From IMG/VR virus record IMGVR_UViG_648276671_000006, positions 1 to 6,300 of that record: DNA of 6,300 bases; one strand, written 5' to 3'. The notes under the pieces are model-generated. The model worked only from the letters and a program-made list of their open reading frames with translations. It made no database searches and was not told the DNA's origin. Of this stretch, positions 1 through 5,943 are shown piece after piece (the first letter of the stretch is position 1; each line of letters begins with the position of its first letter). This DNA comes from a virus. Its lineage: Duplodnaviria > Heunggongvirae > Uroviricota > Caudoviricetes. The position numbers were made by a program, and so were the translations under genes.

Positions 1-203
1 GCTGAAAATGGCAGTAATGATTTATCCTCCGCCAGCGACTGGCGAACGGCAGGAACGAACCCGGACGGCAGATTACGCATGCTTTTCGGTTCCGGCTCCA
101 CCAGTATCCGGGTATTGTGGAATACTGGCATGGATTCACGGCCCAGCTTAAGGACCACCAACCCAAGTTCTGGTACCAGAACAGGTCGAAGTAATACCCG
201 CAC
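1..203 (-). CDS. hypothetical protein, truncated at the left window edge (N-terminus MRVLLRPVLVPELGLVVLKLGRESMPVFHNTRILVEPEPKSMRNLPSGFVPAVRQSLAEDKSLLPFS...)
   Basis: Minus-strand frame is open from GTG at 203..201 to position 1. GGAGG (212..208) lies 4 nt upstream, and the TAA stop of the preceding gene (207..205) sits inside the same GGAGGTAACGTG junction. An alternative in-frame ATG at 275..273 has only a weak GGA upstream. Not in the ORF track because it runs off the window. Product not recognised. Confidence 0.45.
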   Translation of the reverse strand, partial: MRVLLRPVLVPELGLVVLKLGRESMPVFHNTRILVEPEPKSMRNLPSGFVPAVRQSLAEDKSLLPFS

Positions 204-204
204 G

Positions 205-450
205 TTACCTCCAGATCCGTTGCTGGTATGTGCGGGATGGGCGCGGTGGGCGTTCGGAATAAGGGAGCCTGACATAGATTATCCAGTGACGATAATCGAG
301 GCTGAGGGCTTTCTTAATCTCGTATCCGCGTCTGCGGTAGTTCTGAATCAGCCATTCGGCCTGTTCTTCAGTGCAGGGGTTATGCTGGAACCAGTCTGGT
401 TTGAATGCGTGAAAACGCCGCTCATTGTAACTCGTTGCTTTTTGCGTCAT
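205..450 (-). CDS. hypothetical small protein (81 aa, MTQKATSYNERRFHAFKPDWFQHNPCTEEQAEWLIQNYRRRGYEI...)
   Basis: Track ORF 205..462 trimmed to the ATG at 450..448, which has GAGGA (460..456) 5 nt upstream. The N-terminal 50 residues look protein-like. The C-terminal 30 residues (RLPYSERPPRPSRTYQQRIWR) are low-complexity, so the true end is uncertain. Confidence 0.55.
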   Translation of the reverse strand: MTQKATSYNERRFHAFKPDWFQHNPCTEEQAEWLIQNYRRRGYEIKKALSLDYRHWIIYVRLPYSERPPRPSRTYQQRIWR

Positions 451-479
451 AACAATCCTCATGACGCATCATTATCAGA

Positions 480-511
480 CCCCACAGTGTTCAGCTATGG
501 GGTTTTATTAT
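480..511 (+). terminator. terminator-like hairpin with a plus-strand T-run, in the gap between two minus-strand genes
   Basis: CCCCACAG (480..487) pairs with CTATGGGG (495..502) with one mismatch, loop TGTTCAG, followed by TTTTATTAT on the plus strand. On the minus strand the same hairpin has no U-run after it. Confidence 0.3.
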
Positions 512-529
512 CTCCACTAACGGTGTCCG

Positions 530-748
530 CTACAAGCCCCCGGACGAATACTGCTGCACAATATCACGCAATACTGCGTGGGACACAATGCGTTCGTCAT
601 TATGCAGAGGGCGCACCCTTAATACCTTCCCCATTCGTCTCCAGACAGCTCTTTTACTATCAGGCAAACTATCCATCTCAGCAACCACTGCGCCATCAGA
701 GCGGCGAACAACTTCATATTCATGCTCCGTCAATGCGTGACTTCTCAT
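530..748 (-). CDS. hypothetical small protein (72 aa, MRSHALTEHEYEVVRRSDGAVVAEMDSLPDSKRAVWRRMGKVLRVRPLHNDERIVSHAVLRDIVQQYSSGGL)
   Basis: ATG at 748..746 with a strong AGGAGGAA 7 nt upstream. Balanced charged/hydrophobic composition. Lies downstream of the hok terminator, so it is probably a separate transcription unit or needs read-through. Confidence 0.6.
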   Translation of the reverse strand: MRSHALTEHEYEVVRRSDGAVVAEMDSLPDSKRAVWRRMGKVLRVRPLHNDERIVSHAVLRDIVQQYSSGGL

Positions 749-930
749 ATCGTATTTCCTCCTGGATCGTTACCTTCAAAATAAATCTTTCTGATAAGAG
801 AAATATAACCACCTGATGTGATTATTTCATCACCAATAATTGAGTGTTTTTTGCCCGCTCTCAATGAAATTTTTTTACGTCTGTTATCTAATCAGAAAGT
901 AGCGTGTCTTTTAAACAGTCGTTGATTTTG

Positions 931-960: not shown

Positions 961-1018
961 TGCGGGTGCGTTGAGGATGCCTGACACATCAGAGGTGGCG
1001 AGGGATTTCTCCCTCGCC
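961..1018 (-). promoter_or_regulatory. hok mRNA 3' elements: fbi-like box (961..976) and a perfect 9-bp hairpin (997..1018)
   Basis: The transcript here reads CCUCAACGCACCCGCA, complementary with one bulged C to the predicted 5' end UGCGGGUGCUUGAGG (1330..1316). GGCGAGGGA/UCCCUCGCC hairpin with a 4-nt loop sits just 3' of the hok stop. Confidence 0.5.
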
Positions 1019-1025
1019 TGGTCTC

Positions 1026-1181
1026 TTACTCCTCAGGTTCGTAAGCTGTGAAGACAGCGACCTCCGTCTGGCCGGTTCGGATTCGTACCTCGCAGAGGTC
1101 TTTCCTCGTTACCAGTGCCGTCACTATGACGGTTAAACAGATGACGATCAGGGCGATTAACATCGCCTTTTGCTGCTTCAT
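1026..1181 (-). CDS. hok: Hok/Gef-family type I toxin (51 aa, MKQQKAMLIALIVICLTVIVTALVTRKDLCEVRIRTGQTEVAVFTAYEPEE)
   Basis: Single hydrophobic transmembrane segment followed by the conserved RKxLCE.R...GxxEVAAF-like tail of Hok/Gef peptides. From memory it is closest to chromosomal HokD/RelF. ATG at 1181..1179 with AAGGAG 9 nt upstream. The 70-aa track ORF 1026..1238 is an in-frame N-terminal extension. Confidence 0.85.
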   Translation of the reverse strand: MKQQKAMLIALIVICLTVIVTALVTRKDLCEVRIRTGQTEVAVFTAYEPEE

Positions 1182-1227
1182 AGCCTGCTTCTCCTTGACC
1201 TTTCGGTCCGTAAGAGGCAATCTATAT

Positions 1228-1290
1228 GTGACGAGCATATAGGGGCCTCACTTCGATTTATAGTCGGGTGGGGCTTTTCTCTATCTGCCT
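1228..1290 (+). ncRNA. expected position of a Sok-like antisense RNA (approximate, not firmly located)
   Basis: By analogy with hok/sok loci, the antisense RNA should cover the leader-ORF SD (plus 1246..1251) and ATG (1236..1238). Plus-strand signals are weak: TTGACC (1195..1200), 17 nt, CAATCT; possible 3' stem 1245..1251/1268..1274 followed by TTTTCTCT. It may be degenerate. Confidence 0.2.
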
Positions 1291-1315
1291 TTGGTGGCAT
1301 GCCCGAGACAGATAG

Positions 1316-1361
1316 CCTCAAGCACCCGCAGCAATTCTACTTAACTCTCCTTTTCCCGCAA
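1316..1361 (-). promoter_or_regulatory. hok promoter and 5' tac-like box
   Basis: On the minus strand: TTGCGG (1361..1356), 16 nt, TAGAAT (1339..1334). Predicted start near 1328, giving a transcript of about 390 nt whose first 15 nt are complementary to 976..961. Confidence 0.45.
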
Positions 1362-1448
1362 ACCGTTTTTATCCCCATCGGCAAATCGAATACACCACCA
1401 GCGCCACCGCCAGTGCGATTCCTACCGTTGTGAATGCTTCAGGGCAGG

Positions 1449-1730
1449 TCATCGCAAAACATCCTCCGCGCTTATCAGTTCGTTCCGCTTCAGGTAGTCC
1501 ATCGCCTTCTCCGGTAATTTGCAGTCTGGATTAGCTTTTTTCAGTTGACTGACCAGTCGTTTAACCCACATTGTTAATTCGCCAACTTGGTTACTGGATG
1601 CTAATGGATTGTCGGCTTTACCCAGAATGACAGCACAGCAGGCCTCTTTGAGAACCCAATCAACAGCATCTTTCCATACTCCTGTTTCGACTGGTGGATT
1701 CTCACGCTTTACCTGTTCATAAAAGCGCAC
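1449..1730 (-). CDS. hypothetical protein (93 aa, VRFYEQVKRENPPVETGVWKDAVDWVLKEACCAVILGKADNPLASSNQVGELTMWVKRLVSQLKKANPDCKLPEKAMDYLKRNELISAEDVLR)
   Basis: Protein-like composition. The only start available is GTG at 1730..1728, with no convincing SD; it overlaps the upstream gene by 22 nt, so translation may be coupled. No in-frame ATG before residue 54. Confidence 0.5.
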   Translation of the reverse strand: MRFYEQVKRENPPVETGVWKDAVDWVLKEACCAVILGKADNPLASSNQVGELTMWVKRLVSQLKKANPDCKLPEKAMDYLKRNELISAEDVLR

Positions 1731-1957
1731 GGCTTTAACCAGTCCTTACGCGCCTGCTCCGAAGGAAATATCCCATGCCCCGAACCATATACTGCACCAC
1801 TGACCACCAGCTCTTTCGCCAGAACTTCTATCAGGTGTCTGGTAGCTCCGGTTTCATCTTCCAGTTGCTTACGCGTTTTCCTTCCGTCTCTGCGTACCAG
1901 TTCCACAATACGCGCCTTCAGTTGTTCCCTGTATTCAGGTGTAAAAGCGTTTCCCAT
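1709..1957 (-). CDS. small winged-helix-like protein (82 aa, MGNAFTPEYREQLKARIVELVRRDGRKTRKQLEDETGATRHLIEVLAKELVVSGAVYGSGHGIFPSEQARKDWLKPCAFMNR)
   Basis: Track ORF 1709..2014 begins at a TTG. The ATG at 1957..1955 has GAGG 5 nt upstream, overlapping the stop of the previous gene. Contains a K.T..EL....G.S...V...L...L...G.V motif also found twice in the 256-aa neighbour. Confidence 0.6.
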   Translation of the reverse strand: MGNAFTPEYREQLKARIVELVRRDGRKTRKQLEDETGATRHLIEVLAKELVVSGAVYGSGHGIFPSEQARKDWLKPCAFMNR

Positions 1958-1964
1958 AAACGCC

Positions 1965-2735
1965 TCACTTTTCCGATACAACGCGACTGGTGGAATCGAC
2001 AATCTGTCGAACAATATCCCGGTGCTTGTTCAGCTCCCGTAGCGCGGCGCAGACACGCTCCCACTTCTGGACATGGCTTTTCGCCCGACGCAGTTCACGA
2101 TTTGCCATATGCAGCGATGGTAAAATCAGGTCATCCGCTCGAGTTTCGGTGAACGATGACAACGACTGCACAATGTCCGCCACAGTTTCTGTTTTAATTT
2201 CTTCCTGTATTGCAGCTTCCTGTACAGGTAACGCAACGCCGGCTGGCTGAGGAAAGGCTTTACCATCATTTTCCGTTACCAATGCGACTTTCGGCTTTAC
2301 TGGTAAATTCTCGCCCGGCATGCAGTAGCGAAATTTACCGTTCTGGTTTACGCGTGCCAGCCGCCCCGTTGCGGTTACTACCGCCAGTGTGGAAGCAACC
2401 TTGCGAGTGCTGACACCGAACTTACCCGCCAGTTCCTCACACGTTTTAGCTCCCTCCTGACCGATAAACTCAATCATCATGTCAGCGGTAACTTTTCGTT
2501 CGACCTCCCTGGTTAACACATCTTGTGTTTCAGATTGTGCTGGCTGCTCTTCGGCTCCCCCTGATTCACCTTCGCCAGCCACACGCCAGGTGTATGCACT
2601 TTTATCAACGAAGCCAGCCTTTTTCAGTTCCCACAGCTCCTTCAGCACTTCTTCACGACTGATATCAAGTCGCGTAGTCAGTTCTACCGACGTGGCTTTT
2701 CCCATTGCTTTCAGTGCGTCAAAAACAGTCTCCAT
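1965..2735 (-). CDS. hypothetical protein with two tandem winged-helix-like motifs and a helical C-terminal region (256 aa)
   Basis: ATG at 2735..2733 with GGGAGGA 5 nt upstream; 33-nt gap after the P-like stop. Motifs [32 protein letters not shown] and [33 protein letters not shown]. No Walker A/B or nuclease motifs seen. Confidence 0.8.
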
Positions 2736-2768
2736 AAATTTCCTCCCGGTAAAAAATCACTTCTCAAC

Positions 2769-3434
2769 TCAAACAAAACCAGCCGCTTTCCGGCGTTCAT
2801 ACTCCTGTTTCAGCAACTCAATTGGCGTTGGTCCCGACGGGCGTTTGGGTGCTGCCAGTTGCCGCCGTACGGGCGGAACGCTGAGGCCGTTGCCAACATG
2901 CTTTGCCCATTTCGTCAGCTGCCGTTCTGCAAGCCGTTTTAACTCCCCTTCGGTCATCTGGCATTCAATCCCCTTTGAACGCATCTCGAGGCAAATGTGA
3001 TACAGCACAGGCTGAGACCACGGGTATTTATCGCTTCCGTCGTATCGCCAGGACTCATTGCGCCAGCGTCGGTACTCCTCCATCACGCCATCTACCGTCA
3101 GACCAAATGGATTTGCCCCGCTCTCCGAAATCAGCGCCACAAACTCAGCCAGGTCCGGAGGCCATGTTTCACCCGCCCGGCAGCGGTCCATGCACTGGCG
3201 GCAGACCTGCCGGATTTGCTGCTCAGTCATCGCGCCAATCTGTGCAATCCAGAGCTTCGAAGGTGCGGACCCGTTCTTCTGGGTCCAGCGGTTCGAATAA
3301 ACCTCCCCCATGAGTTCCCACAGCTTCCACGCCGTTTCCGTCGCTGATAAATCCGTTTTCACGTTCCCACTGTTCACGTGCTGCCCGAATTTCCTGAACT
3401 GCCCGTGATGCGGTGCCACCTGGTGCTGCTGCAT
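2769..3434 (-). CDS. replication protein P-like helicase loader
   Basis: The C-terminal two thirds align by eye with lambda P ([18 protein letters not shown] vs ESYPWKSNAHYWLVTNLY; [13 protein letters not shown] vs TDAELRRKAADEL). Start is uncertain: ATG at 3434 has a G-rich SD but overlaps the O-like gene by 212 nt; internal ATGs at 3311 and 3230 (the latter an ATGACTGA overlap with the O-like stop) are alternatives. Confidence 0.7.
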
Positions 3435-4263
3435 GGCTCCCCCCCTTGCTGACTGGTTTAACCTGCGCCCTGACGTGATTTACGTGACGGGCAAATTTCT
3501 GCTCCCACTGAACCTGCGTGAAAACTTTTCCCTCCTCTGCCCAGTAATCCCGGAAGGCGGCAAGTTCAGCAGGTGTAAATTCCGGCTCCGGCAAAGCCAC
3601 TCCCCACAGTGCAGCCCGCCGTCGAAAATCCGGCGACGGATACCAGTCATCGGTCATCGGAAATTTTCCGATGCGTTCGCTCAGGCCATCCAGGAATGCA
3701 GGGGGCGTTGCCTGTGACGGCAAAACTTCCCTCTCACTGGTCGGAGCACTCTCGCGTGCGTTATGTATGGGGTTTAGATCTTTAGGTTCCTTTGGGTTCC
3801 GTGATCCGTTTTTGGGTGTCTTTGATGGAAAATTTGGGTGCCTTTGGTTATTTTCTATGCTGCAAAGAGTCCCGTTTTTGGGTCTGTTTTGTGCGGAAAC
3901 ACAACCGTTTTTGGTGCTGTTTTTATTAACAGTACCAATTTTACCCACCTTTAAAGACTCCCGTTTTTGGGTGTATTCAGGCTCGGCAACACTTTCTTCA
4001 ACACCGATAAGTTGGTACACCACAATTTGCTTTGTTCGACCTTTTCTCTCACCGGTATCAACAATTAACCCAATCTCCATCAGGTGCCGTAAGCTGTCCT
4101 GCACAGTTTTTTTGTTCAGTTCCGTTACTTCTGCCAGTGCAGATACAGACGGGTATGCACACAAATCGGCACCGCACATATCAGCAAGCCAGGTCAATAC
4201 TGACTTACTGGATGAACTGCCGGTTTTCACCCTTTTAGCCCATCGTAGTGCATCGATACTCAT
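3223..4263 (-). CDS. O-like replication initiator: N-terminal HTH domain, PKNG-repeat linker, DnaT-like C-terminal domain
   Basis: Track ORF 3223..4338 starts at TTG. The ATG at 4263..4261 has GAGG 5 nt upstream ([15 protein letters not shown]...). N-terminal region resembles phage replication-initiator HTH domains; [48 protein letters not shown] resembles the DnaT C-terminal domain. Iteron-like repeats lie inside the linker-coding segment. Confidence 0.8.
3783..3976. repeat. iteron-like direct repeats (CCGTTTTTGGGTG family), putative replication origin inside the initiator gene
   Basis: Near-identical copies at 3806..3818, 3872..3884, 3905..3916 and 3961..3973, plus degenerate TTTGGGT(T/G)CC copies at 3791..3800 and 3833..3842. 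An AT-rich stretch lies at 3917..3958. On the coding strand the repeats translate to recurring PKNG. Confidence 0.55.
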
Positions 4264-4786
4264 GCGAACCTCGACCAGGTATCTGTTGACCCGCAAAGCA
4301 ATGTTGGTATTGCTGACGATATGCACGTTTGAAAGCAATAGCTTTTTCTATAAGCTCGTCAGCCTCACGCTCCACAACAGTTGGATCTGCAAAAAGCAGC
4401 CCGGACTCCACCACATCACCATACTCTTTGTTTAACCCGGCGATCATGTACGTAATGCTTTTTCCGTCAGTAATTTCACAATACAACCTGAAATCACTGA
4501 TCCGGATAGCCTCCATAATTGCCGGAATCAGCGCCGTGAATTTTTCACGCTTATCCCTGGTGTCGATAGCTTTCCAGCGTTCAAATATCTTCACCCTGTT
4601 AACGCCAAGCGCCCGCTGATCAACCACGCCATCATCAAATGTGACACGTTGAACATCGATGTTCGGGCGCTCTTTCAGAGCCCAGAAGGCTTCTGTGATT
4701 AATATCGTCGCCTGCTCCTGCGTCATTCCCGGGCTGCATACCCAGGAGTCCAGAGCCTCACGAGCCTGCTCAGGAGTGAATATCAT
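4235..4786 (-). CDS. YdaT-like protein, positional equivalent of lambda CII (183 aa)
   Basis: Sits between the Cro-like gene and the initiator, as cII does in lambda. ATG at 4786..4784 overlaps the Cro-like stop by 17 nt. Assignment to the YdaT family is from memory of prophage YdaS/YdaT pairs, not from a search. Confidence 0.7.
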
Positions 4787-5063
4787 TGTTCACCGCCAGT
4801 GATTCATTTGTCATACACTTATTCCCACAAGGCAGCCCATCGGTTAGATTGGGGTAAATATCTGGGCGAAGCTCGTGGGGGGTGACTTGCCATTCAAGGA
4901 GCACACAAAGAGGAATGACCCGCTCAGCTGGTATTGATTTATTGGCAAACCATTTTCCAACCCCTTGCCCACTAATCCCAAAGCGTTCTCCAATCTCGAC
5001 AAAGGAAAAGTTTTTTTTAATCTTGTCTCGTAGATCGTTTAGTTTTTGATGTTTTTTAGCCAC
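4770..5063 (-). CDS. Cro/YdaS-like HTH regulator (97 aa from the GTG start)
   Basis: HTH FVEIGERFGISGQGVGKWFANKSIPAERV and an ELRPD motif as in YdaS-type Cro proteins. Track ORF 4770..5162 would leave only 11 nt to the divergent repressor. GTG at 5063..5061 has a near-consensus SD GAGGTGAGG (5078..5070). ATG at 5087 is an alternative, possibly leaderless. Confidence 0.7.
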   Translation of the reverse strand: MAKKHQKLNDLRDKIKKNFSFVEIGERFGISGQGVGKWFANKSIPAERVIPLCVLLEWQVTPHELRPDIYPNLTDGLPCGNKCMTNESLAVNNDIHS

Positions 5064-5173
5064 ACAACACCTCACCTCTTGGTTCATCACTGGGAGCATA
5101 ACAGGCGAAAGTTTACGTTTCAAGAACAAGGAAACAAATAGTTGTACTGATAATCGAAACATTTGGTTGTAAA
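5064..5173. promoter_or_regulatory. divergent promoter/operator region of the immunity switch
   Basis: Three operator-like sites about 25 bp apart: GAAAGTTTACGTTTC (5107..5121, palindromic GAAA-N7-TTTC), GAAACAAATAGTTGTAC (5131..5147) and GAAACATTTGGTTGTAA (5156..5172). Leftward promoter TTGAAA (5123..5118), 17 nt, TATGCT (5100..5095). Rightward promoter CTGATA (5147..5152), 17 nt, TAAAAT (5170..5175). Confidence 0.55.
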
Positions 5174-5599
5174 ATGCAGGCTATGAACGATACCGTTAAC
5201 AATGTTTTTGCAAAAAGAATCCAGCAAGTGATGGATGAAAATGGCTGGAATAAGTCAGACCTGGCTAAGCGGGTCATGTTATCTCACACCGCGGTTCAGA
5301 ATTGGGCAAAAGGCATCAGCGTAGCCAGCGGTGTAAGATTAAAAAGGCTCGCAGCTGTAACAGGAAAGCCTGAGTACTGGTTTTTTATGGATCGGGATGC
5401 AGGAGGCGATGAAAATCACCAAGATATACCAATACCCATTGTGCTTGATGACAAAGAGAAAGCCCTGCTCTCAATTTTCAATCAAATGCCAGAAGCAGAA
5501 AAGTTACGCCTAATTATCCATGCTAAGGAAGTCCTGAGAGAGCTGGAACTGCTTAAGAGCGATGTTTTCGATATTATCAACGATCAATTAAAACCATAG
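5174..5599 (+). CDS. DicA-like HTH (XRE-family) prophage repressor, 141 aa
   Basis: N-terminal HTH SDLAKRVMLSHTAVQNWAKG; the C-terminal segment LDDKEKALLSIFNQMPEAEKLRLIIHAKEV resembles the DicA C-terminal region. No peptidase S24 (LexA-like) domain. Divergent from the Cro-like gene. The start may instead be the ATG at 5183, because the -10 TAAAAT overlaps the first ATG. Confidence 0.85.
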   Translation: MQAMNDTVNNVFAKRIQQVMDENGWNKSDLAKRVMLSHTAVQNWAKGISVASGVRLKRLAAVTGKPEYWFFMDRDAGGDENHQDIPIPIVLDDKEKALLSIFNQMPEAEKLRLIIHAKEVLRELELLKSDVFDIINDQLKP

Positions 5600-5624
5600 C
5601 TAACAAACCATCCACACATCAGAC

Positions 5625-5652
5625 AAAAAGCACCTTTCTGGTGCTTTTTTTT
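5625..5652 (+). terminator. rho-independent terminator after the repressor gene
   Basis: AAAAAGCACC-TTTCT-GGTGCTTTTT: perfect 10-bp stem, 5-nt loop, then a T-run to 5652. The A-run before the stem makes it potentially bidirectional. Confidence 0.7.
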
Positions 5653-5661
5653 GCCCAGAAA

Positions 5662-5712
5662 CGAAATTTTCTATTTCGCACACTTTACACGCGAAAGTTA
5701 TTGTTGCACAAT
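5662..5712 (+). promoter_or_regulatory. second operator-bearing promoter (PL-like) for the rightward ydfA-like operon
   Basis: GAAATTTTCTATTTC (5663..5677) is a second GAAA-N7-TTTC palindrome. GAAAGTTATTGTTGCAC (5693..5709) matches 12 of 17 positions of the 5131..5147 site. Candidate promoter TTTACA (5684..5689), 17 nt, CACAAT (5707..5712). Confidence 0.35.
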
Positions 5713-5790
5713 CCACACCATCAACAACGAAACGCATCGTTGTCAGGCTAAAGTTCCGCTACCCCGGCGTTAAGGGGAAATGAGGTCAAC

Positions 5791-5943
5791 ATGGATACTA
5801 TCGATCTTGGCAACAACGAATCTCTGGTGTACGGCGTGTTTCCCAACCAGGACGGCACGTTCACCGCGATGACGTATACCAAAAGCAAAACATTTAAAAC
5901 CGAAGCTGGCGCGCGTCGCTGGTTAGCCAGAAACACTGACTGA
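5791..5943 (+). CDS. YdfA-like small protein (50 aa, MDTIDLGNNESLVYGVFPNQDGTFTAMTYTKSKTFKTEAGARRWLARNTD)
   Basis: Below the ORF-track length cutoff. ATG at 5791 with GAGG 5 nt upstream; stop TGA at 5941..5943. Its position immediately downstream of a DicA-like repressor matches the dicA-ydfA arrangement of the Qin prophage. Sequence identity to YdfA is from uncertain memory. Confidence 0.6.
   Translation: MDTIDLGNNESLVYGVFPNQDGTFTAMTYTKSKTFKTEAGARRWLARNTD

Follow-up and report, generated by a model that had tools for sequence, protein, structure and literature searches.

The window, by which we mean the whole 6,300-nucleotide (nt) stretch of DNA analyzed here, comes from a lambdoid prophage (Rac/Qin-like) of one Escherichia coli draft genome and carries its early-right operon, whose genes are all on the minus strand. 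Listed from the repressor end, its features are as follows.

5174-5599, plus strand: DicA-like repressor.
Within the open reading frame (ORF) at 4770-5162, minus strand: YdaS/Cro-like gene, facing the DicA-like repressor.
4235-4786, minus strand: YdaT/CII-like gene, likewise facing the DicA-like repressor.
Within the ORF at 3223-4338, minus strand: DnaT-domain initiator.
Within the ORF at 2769-3434, minus strand: P-like loader (replication gene).
1965-2735, minus strand: DUF1627/YdaW-family gene, intact, 256 amino acids (aa) plus stop (PF07789, phrog_630).
1709-1957, minus strand: 3′-truncated DUF977/Ren-like gene (PF06163, phrog_142, junction alignment).
1733-1747, minus strand: putative deletion or illegitimate-recombination junction; the coding strand reads AAGGACTGGTTAAAG.
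1449-1730, minus strand: 5′-truncated remnant, a 93-codon ORF from a mosaic 171- to 210-aa phrog_660-type protein (phrog_660, parent translations).
1179-1327: sok (Rfam match).
Within the ORF at 1026-1238, minus strand: hok.

Three ORFs of 256, 82, and 93 aa are thus present on the minus strand between the P-like gene and hok, and their position in a lambdoid early-right operon agrees with the ren/nin slot to which an earlier sequence-only reading had assigned them. The 82-aa ORF lengthens to 101 aa if counted from an upstream TTG, and the GTG of the 93-aa ORF sits 22 nt inside the 82-aa ORF. The same reading had described three genes of these lengths that could not be placed in any family; the ORFs and their coordinates hold, but all three match catalogued families, and two of them are not intact genes, their matches covering the family profiles only in part. 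No Nin family (NinB to NinH, etc.) appears among the Pfam, PHROG, and NCBIfam matches of the three ORFs. A search of PADLOC-DB returned no significant defense-model match for the three ORFs, nor for the full-length parents of the two small ones, and no internal promoter or terminator in the region 1000-3500 rises above shuffle expectation.

The 256-aa ORF encodes a full-length DUF1627 protein. PF07789 matches it over the entire profile (8.4e-96; 318.4 bits, where the cut-off is 28.1; positions 1-155 of 155), phrog_630 matches over profile positions 1-252 of 253 (6.9e-130), and annotated DUF1627 proteins align at 92% identity with 100% coverage of the window's protein, bearing out a family assignment that had been offered earlier as a guess. 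A strong Shine-Dalgarno (SD) sequence, GGGAGG, lies six nt 5′ of its ATG. The AF2 model places a confident winged helix at aa 1-55 (pLDDT about 90), followed by an acidic disordered linker, a second winged helix (helix-turn-helix) at aa 84-135 (pLDDT about 70), a Pro-rich disordered linker, and a long C-terminal helix at aa 197-255; the whole-protein model has a pTM of 0.25, and per-domain matches alone were used. The domains match winged-helix folds in Foldseek and profile searches, with no Foldseek match of the DUF1627 domains reaching an E value of 0.001, and the 256-aa protein contains no enzymatic domain, so that the tandem winged-helix motifs and the lack of enzymatic motifs noticed from the letters alone are both upheld. 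This architecture of two winged helices and a C-terminal EIRRTK...LE.LR helix is kept across 40 aligned members that share 21 to 79% identity, and L34 and W50 are invariant in that alignment.

The DUF1627 family is both compact (175 clusters at 50% identity) and abundant (2,272 clusters at 90% identity). Of 5,426 complete E. coli genomes, 3,717, or roughly two-thirds, have a match to a 1.5-kb query spanning the three ORFs, and the same search finds up to 14 related places per genome. In the window, DUF1627 lies directly downstream of a loader gene, with the P-like gene ending at 2769 and DUF1627 starting at 2735; a P-like gene adjoins DUF1627 in 54 of 76 loci, and a DnaC/IstB-like loader is the alternative in annotated relatives. 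The only PADLOC matches of DUF1627 are weak winged-helix ones, to Csa3/CARF C-terminal domains (best, 1.1e-5).

Among solved structures, the closest folds to winged helix 1 are Z-alpha domains (ADAR1, ZBP1, PKZ, and E3L; rmsd of 0.7 to 1.2 Å over 51 to 56 residues), which are also the best sequence-profile matches of winged helix 2 (E values of 2e-4 to 7e-3), and the Z-alpha wing tryptophan has its counterpart in the invariant W50 of winged helix 1. The nucleic-acid contact residues of ADAR1 Z-alpha are Asn173 and Tyr177. In winged helix 2, unlike in Z-alpha domains, Ser and Met/Val occupy these positions; the Tyr177 equivalent of winged helix 1 (position 35) is variable across the family, and the Pro-Pro of the wing motif Pro-Pro-x-Trp is absent from DUF1627. 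With the contact residues unconserved and with MarR, ArsR, and AspA domains scoring about equally, we rejected a Z-alpha identity; the DUF1627 domains are treated here as generic winged helices, and Z-alpha is kept as a description of the fold only.

The 82-aa ORF that follows DUF1627 belongs to a different family and is incomplete. PF06163 (DUF977) matches it at 3.8e-11 (43.6 bits, where the cut-off is 22.1) over profile positions 1-76 of 134 only, and phrog_142, annotated as "Ren-like exclusion protein," matches at 4.7e-17 over the N-terminal part of the family; a full-length DUF977 relative covers PF06163 from 1 to 134 of 134. DUF977 was recognized earlier as a winged helix (PMC2686095). 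The window's product consists of residues 1-73 of an approximately 140-aa DUF977 protein, which is the winged-helix part, plus nine out-of-frame residues (LKPCAFMNR) and then a stop, and the motif ECRxSxAMxRVLAxY at the C terminus of full-length DUF977 is absent from this copy. Its SD is good (GAGG, 5 nt), and a truncated protein that has both this signal and a complete winged helix may keep partial activity. In the assembly collection, the exact 82-aa product is recorded on a single contig (GL884357.1, GCA_000176655.2), which is 100% identical to the window.

The 93-aa ORF is incomplete at the opposite end. Its match to phrog_660 (9.5e-45) is confined to profile positions 105-193 of 193, and it represents the shared C-terminal module alone (..VRFYEQVKRENPP...EDVLR; here called the C-module). 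Translations of the 171- and 210-aa parents identify the GTG at 1730 as an internal Val codon, and a TAA at 1746-1748 shuts the 93-aa frame five codons above it; what had been taken for an overlapping start within a compact gene arrangement is thus an internal codon exposed by deletion. The nearest SD-like sequence, AAGGA, lies at a poor spacing of 12 nt 5′ of the GTG. No gene call in the assembly collection corresponds to the 93-aa product, and the gene caller of the source record likewise passed over it; the ORF has no match in Pfam, NCBIfam, PADLOC, or (by profile) PDB, and its AF2 model is all-helical with low confidence (pLDDT of 58).

The closest proteins to the 93-aa ORF are mosaic proteins of the ead/Ea22-like region (phrog_660, phrog_924, and related families), in the nearest of which the C-terminal module is 74 to 99% identical to it. 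In these homologs, the module always stands behind an N-terminal extension of one of at least four types, joined at one boundary (..P.P..EGLVKAV..), whereas in the window the N-terminal domain and the native start are missing. The C-module is itself made of two sub-modules, each of which is also found separately. We considered the C-module as a stand-alone gene, for which database entries of 93 to 113 aa (P0130, P0138, P0139, P0145, and P0146) seemed to be natural short forms, but these were ruled out: at L086 and L088/L089, translation runs on upstream into different N-terminal domains, giving longer ORFs, and the L087 locus is a frameshifted version of the 171-aa type. Low-level translation of the remnant may occur, given the in-frame GTG and the nearly whole shared C-module that it retains.

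Alignment with relatives gives the coding-strand context in which the two partial ORFs meet as ...GAGCAGGCGCGTAAGGACTGGTTAAAGCCGTGCGCTTTTATGAA... As far as AAGGACTGG, the window tracks DUF977, read ..Q A R K D W, and from GGACTGGTTAAAGCCGTGCGC on it tracks the hok-proximal gene, read ..E G L V K A V R F Y E Q, with the frame displaced by one base. The shared AAGGACTGG is an exact 9-bp microhomology at 1739-1747, with 14 of 15 positions shared overall. Searches by blastn against three annotated relatives likewise return two homology blocks, ending at 1747 or starting at 1727-1739, which overlap by only 9 to 21 nt. A common 9-mer is expected by chance about once between genes of such size (420 × 600 / 4^9), and therefore the microhomology needs no special explanation.

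The annotated E. coli relatives have a DUF977 of about 140 aa and, beside hokD, a gene for a 171- or 210-aa hypothetical protein, with variable genes between the two. Compared with PEC422, which has the closest layout (99.2% identity upstream and 94% downstream), the window is missing 715 nt; compared with other relatives, it is missing 1.07 to 2.0 kb (up to 1,997 nt) and up to six genes. One such relative, SMS-3-5, has a C-module that is 100% identical over window positions 1620-1747 and carries six genes between DUF977 and the 171-aa gene. Because their family matches are partial and complementary, the 82- and 93-aa ORFs are, as judged from these alignments, the two sides of an out-of-frame deletion junction and not genes.

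The junction is known solely from the window's own source contig, which is 9.3 kb long and comes from one draft assembly. No match spans it in the 5,426 complete E. coli genomes, 342 of which have a match on one of its two sides that stops at 1747 or begins at 1733; no high-scoring pair spans it in 80 IMG/VR viral loci; and the exact junction, searched as two patterns, has 0 matches in species-representative genomes. This confinement to one short contig of a single assembly would favor a chimeric contig of two lambdoid prophage regions, with the true locus intact, as would the up to 14 related places per genome, which can confuse assemblers, and the different closest relatives of the two flanks. 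We nonetheless regard an assembly artifact as highly unlikely, since the exact overlap of 9 bp (14 of 15) is far below usual assembler overlaps or k-mers, both sides are continuous and collinear with the normal order (DUF977, C-module, hok), and decay is common at this locus, as in similar frameshifted DUF977 copies and in the truncated YdaW of the K-12 Rac prophage. Of the first three annotated relatives, two had a frameshifted DUF977.

We give an equally small chance to a rearranged locus that has become newly functional, either because both products, the winged-helix-only DUF977 and a GTG-initiated C-module, are made or because a −1 frameshift yields an approximately 165-aa chimera of the DUF977 N terminus and the C-module. 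Such a shift would have to take place in an 11-codon interval bounded by the TAA at 1746-1748 and by the stop at 1709-1711, where no canonical X XXY YYZ slippery heptamer occurs, although the C-module frame is indeed −1 relative to DUF977 and the overlap contains A-AAG and T-TTT stretches. Elsewhere, the module occurs as a natural fusion to four or more different N-terminal domains at exactly the boundary of the junction, and AAGGA precedes the GTG by 12 nt, which would favor a working product; against this stand the poor SD spacing, the singleton status of the arrangement with its lack of evolutionary conservation, the source record's gene caller having skipped the ORF, and the low confidence of the remnant's AF2 model. 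A programmed −1 frameshift gene pair was also considered and rejected, the overlap being a singleton and having no slippery heptamer.

Related loci separate what is conserved here from what is not. In 63 of the 78 viral loci whose sequence continues for at least 500 nt past DUF1627, a full-length DUF977 (at least 130 of 140 residues) follows DUF1627 immediately, and in none of the 78 does a truncated DUF977 follow it; DUF977 is absent from 14 loci with a 245-aa DUF1627 variant. The C-module, by comparison, is present in 34 and absent from 22 of the 56 loci with enough sequence, and its distance from DUF1627 is always at least 1,130 nt in the 80 related loci versus 238 nt in the window. DUF1627 and DUF977 are a conserved pair, and the trio with the C-module is not conserved. 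Lambdoid prophages of E. coli and Salmonella annotated by PGAP carry both families of this pair in the same order as the window, after a P-like or DnaC/IstB-like loader, but DUF977 retains at least 130 of 140 residues in all 63 loci, whereas in the window it is cut at codon 73. The pair bears the label "LygF" in some phage records, and our literature search returned no functional data under that name.

These counts bear on the idea that three intact, co-evolved genes form a nucleic-acid-binding cassette for superinfection exclusion, anti-defense, or host takeover, as the sequence-only reading had suggested. Tight packing within one operon, winged-helix content together with a Ren-like family match, and the listing of YdaW as a retron-toxin blocker (discussed below) would fit such a cassette, but two of the ORFs match longer families only in part, the GTG is a codon from the interior of a parent gene, and the arrangement is a singleton in which the supposed linkage of the three genes, checked across 80 related loci, was found in 0, an outcome that the sequence-only reading had itself named as refuting. 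We consider the cassette extremely improbable. What survives of the suggestion is its exclusion or anti-defense element, which the phrog_142 match makes plausible for intact DUF977 copies; the novel three-gene cassette does not survive.

Lambda provides the nearest characterized parallel to DUF977. There, ren lies directly after P on the pR transcript and encodes, like DUF977, a small protein downstream of the replication genes, and ren mutants are sensitive to Rex exclusion. Ren is reported to have a likely role in replication and to interact with the Rex proteins and O (bioRxiv 10.1101/2021.04.19.439022). Lambda Ren and full-length DUF977 share a C-terminal motif (NLVFKECRQSAAMKRVLAVY versus NIICRECRKSEAMQRVLAFY), identical at 12 of 20 positions (E value of 4e-7). 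Unlike lambda ren, DUF977 is set apart from P by DUF1627, and lambda Ren itself has no match to Pfam DUF977. The window's truncated DUF977 shows no pairwise similarity to lambda Ren (E value of 2.7) because the common motif is deleted. An exclusion or anti-defense flavor is plausible for intact DUF977 copies, judging from their membership in a Ren-like family, and the window's own DUF1627-DUF977 pair is probably crippled, because its DUF977 is without the conserved Ren-like C terminus.

The parallel for DUF1627 is YdaW (b1361) of the E. coli K-12 Rac prophage, a DUF1627 member that lies directly after ydaV and is therefore loader-adjacent, as is the window gene. YdaW and the window protein share 62% identity over residues 1-154, and their first winged helices are nearly identical. 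The K-12 protein is 186 aa long and breaks off after its second winged helix (PF07789 at 3.6e-34, positions 1-64 of 155), whereas the window copy is full length at 256 aa; because Rac is deleted at that point, YdaW lacks the C-terminal helix that the window's DUF1627 has. We had also entertained YdaW as a DUF977 protein, which its match to DUF1627 rules out. In an overexpression screen, ydaW is listed among the prophage-gene blockers of the retron-Sen2 toxin RcaT (bioRxiv 10.1101/2020.06.22.160242; PMC11951105), a result that pertains to the truncated K-12 homolog and not to full-length DUF1627. Beyond this screen, the literature that we found mentions DUF1627 only as a conserved neighbor of the PasA/PasC sRNAs.

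Taken together, the sequence comparisons make it very probable that the region contains one intact DUF1627 gene and a deletion scar formed by microhomology-mediated illegitimate recombination, and that it reflects the usual decay of a prophage instead of a new system. The ancestral order would have been that of the relatives: DUF1627, a 140-aa DUF977, a variable stretch with as many as six small genes, and a 171- to 210-aa mosaic gene by hok/sok. Illegitimate recombination across AAGGACTGG would have joined DUF977 codon 73, with a one-base shift in frame, to the final 95 or so codons of the hok-proximal gene and removed about 0.7 to 2 kb. The predicted outcome is a winged-helix-only DUF977 with nine junk residues and a promoterless, start-less C-terminal remnant. 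Because the two flanks are closest to different strains (PEC422 at 99.2% and SMS-3-5 at 100%), two prophages may have recombined with each other here, in place of a simple internal deletion.

As for the intact gene, DUF1627 would probably bind nucleic acid or a partner protein via its two winged helices, probably self-associate through its C-terminal helix, and probably act as an early accessory protein together with Ren-like DUF977 in replication control or counter-defense. We tentatively suggest, as one possible reading, that DUF1627 and DUF977 serve as Ren-like accessories of the early operon that protect replication or counter host defense, with DUF1627 binding through its tandem winged helices and self-associating through its C-terminal helix. 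The broader proposition that DUF1627 and Ren-like DUF977 constitute a widespread two-gene counter-defense/replication-protection module of lambdoid prophages, neutralizing abortive-infection toxins (retron RcaT, Rex), we consider rather unlikely; if it were true, the DUF977 truncation in the window would amount to a naturally occurring separation-of-function allele.

In sum, the stretch comprises one intact member of a known, uncharacterized family and a deletion scar. If it were labeled a novel three-gene cassette, two pseudogene fragments would be passed on as genes, and expression or phage-challenge work on the trio would chase a deletion scar. Since YdaW is a DUF1627 member, the sole literature hint of function, as a retron-toxin blocker, attaches to the window's intact gene, and DUF977 is related to Ren, the conserved motif at its C terminus being precisely what the window copy lost. 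DUF1627 and DUF977 form a conserved, very common, and uncharacterized pair, which would be better studied where the prophage is intact, as it is in SMS-3-5.

The spot used by the window's deletion is shared with other prophages. In different prophages, one C-terminal module (..EGLVKAVRFYEQ..) is fused at GGACTGGTTAAAG to N-terminal domains of at least four unrelated kinds, and the deletion falls at this same boundary. The site behaves like a recurrent mosaic boundary.

Positions of the GGACTGGTTAAAG boundary
Window, 1733-1747
L001 (annotated E. coli relative), about 3448
L002 (annotated E. coli relative), about 3446
L003 (annotated E. coli relative), about 1626
L086 and L088 (loci with the C-terminal module)

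A repeat lies at the left edge of the window: positions 1-199 are present twice, with the second copy (99.5% identity) in the source contig (locus L004, 6592-6791), 292 nt past the window's left end and at the 5′ end of the DUF968 gene. The DUF968 start seems to have been partly duplicated in this 199-nt repeat, possibly leaving a second rearrangement scar in the prophage that carries the deletion. In the same part of the window, the gene call at 79-816 is probably spurious; the ORF has no recorded Pfam family and overlaps two minus-strand ORFs oriented like the operon. Further along, we confirmed a hok/sok type I toxin-antitoxin locus. A 70-aa ORF at this locus matches the "MokW-like host killing" PHROG and is therefore probably the longer mok-type frame with hok inside.

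Features of the window's left part
79-816, plus strand: 245-aa ORF, a gene call in the source record
205-462, minus strand: ORF, phrog_1212 (1.6e-36)
530-748, minus strand: ORF
1026-1327, minus strand: hok/sok locus, containing hok (Hok/gef PF01848, 2.9e-23) and sok (Rfam RF01794, 108 bits)

At 2769-5599, the window carries a Rac/Qin-type immunity and replication module, comprising a DicA-like repressor, YdaS-like and YdaT-like regulators, an initiator with a DnaT DNA-binding domain (346 aa), and a short P-like loader (153 aa). These lengths are the source-record gene calls, against which the mechanical ORF list makes both the P-like and initiator genes too long.

The DUF1627 protein contains two winged helices:

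1968-2735, minus strand: DUF1627 winged helices, residues 1-55 and 84-135

By fold and profile, the nearest solved relatives of both are Z-alpha domains (ADAR1, ZBP1, PKZ, and E3L; E down to 2e-4), but the residues that contact Z-DNA are not conserved. YdaW of E. coli K-12 (b1361; L092, the K-12 ydaW locus, 5253-5813) is a C-terminally truncated member of this family and does not belong to DUF977. The YdaW name is used inconsistently because some phage records give the label "YdaW family" to a neighboring gene.

A 245-aa DUF1627 variant (query residues 1-245 matched) occurs in the viral comparison set at L053, L056, L062, L064, L066-L068, L072-L077, L080, L083, and L084. In the 14 loci whose downstream sequence is long enough, no detectable DUF977 follows it, and therefore DUF1627-DUF977 pairing depends on DUF1627 subtype. 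As for DUF977 itself, the window's copy is truncated, and among the first three E. coli relatives examined, two have it annotated as a frameshifted pseudogene:

L001, 4306-4732: frameshifted DUF977
L002, 3941-4358: frameshifted DUF977

In resident prophages, DUF977 may often be inactivated.
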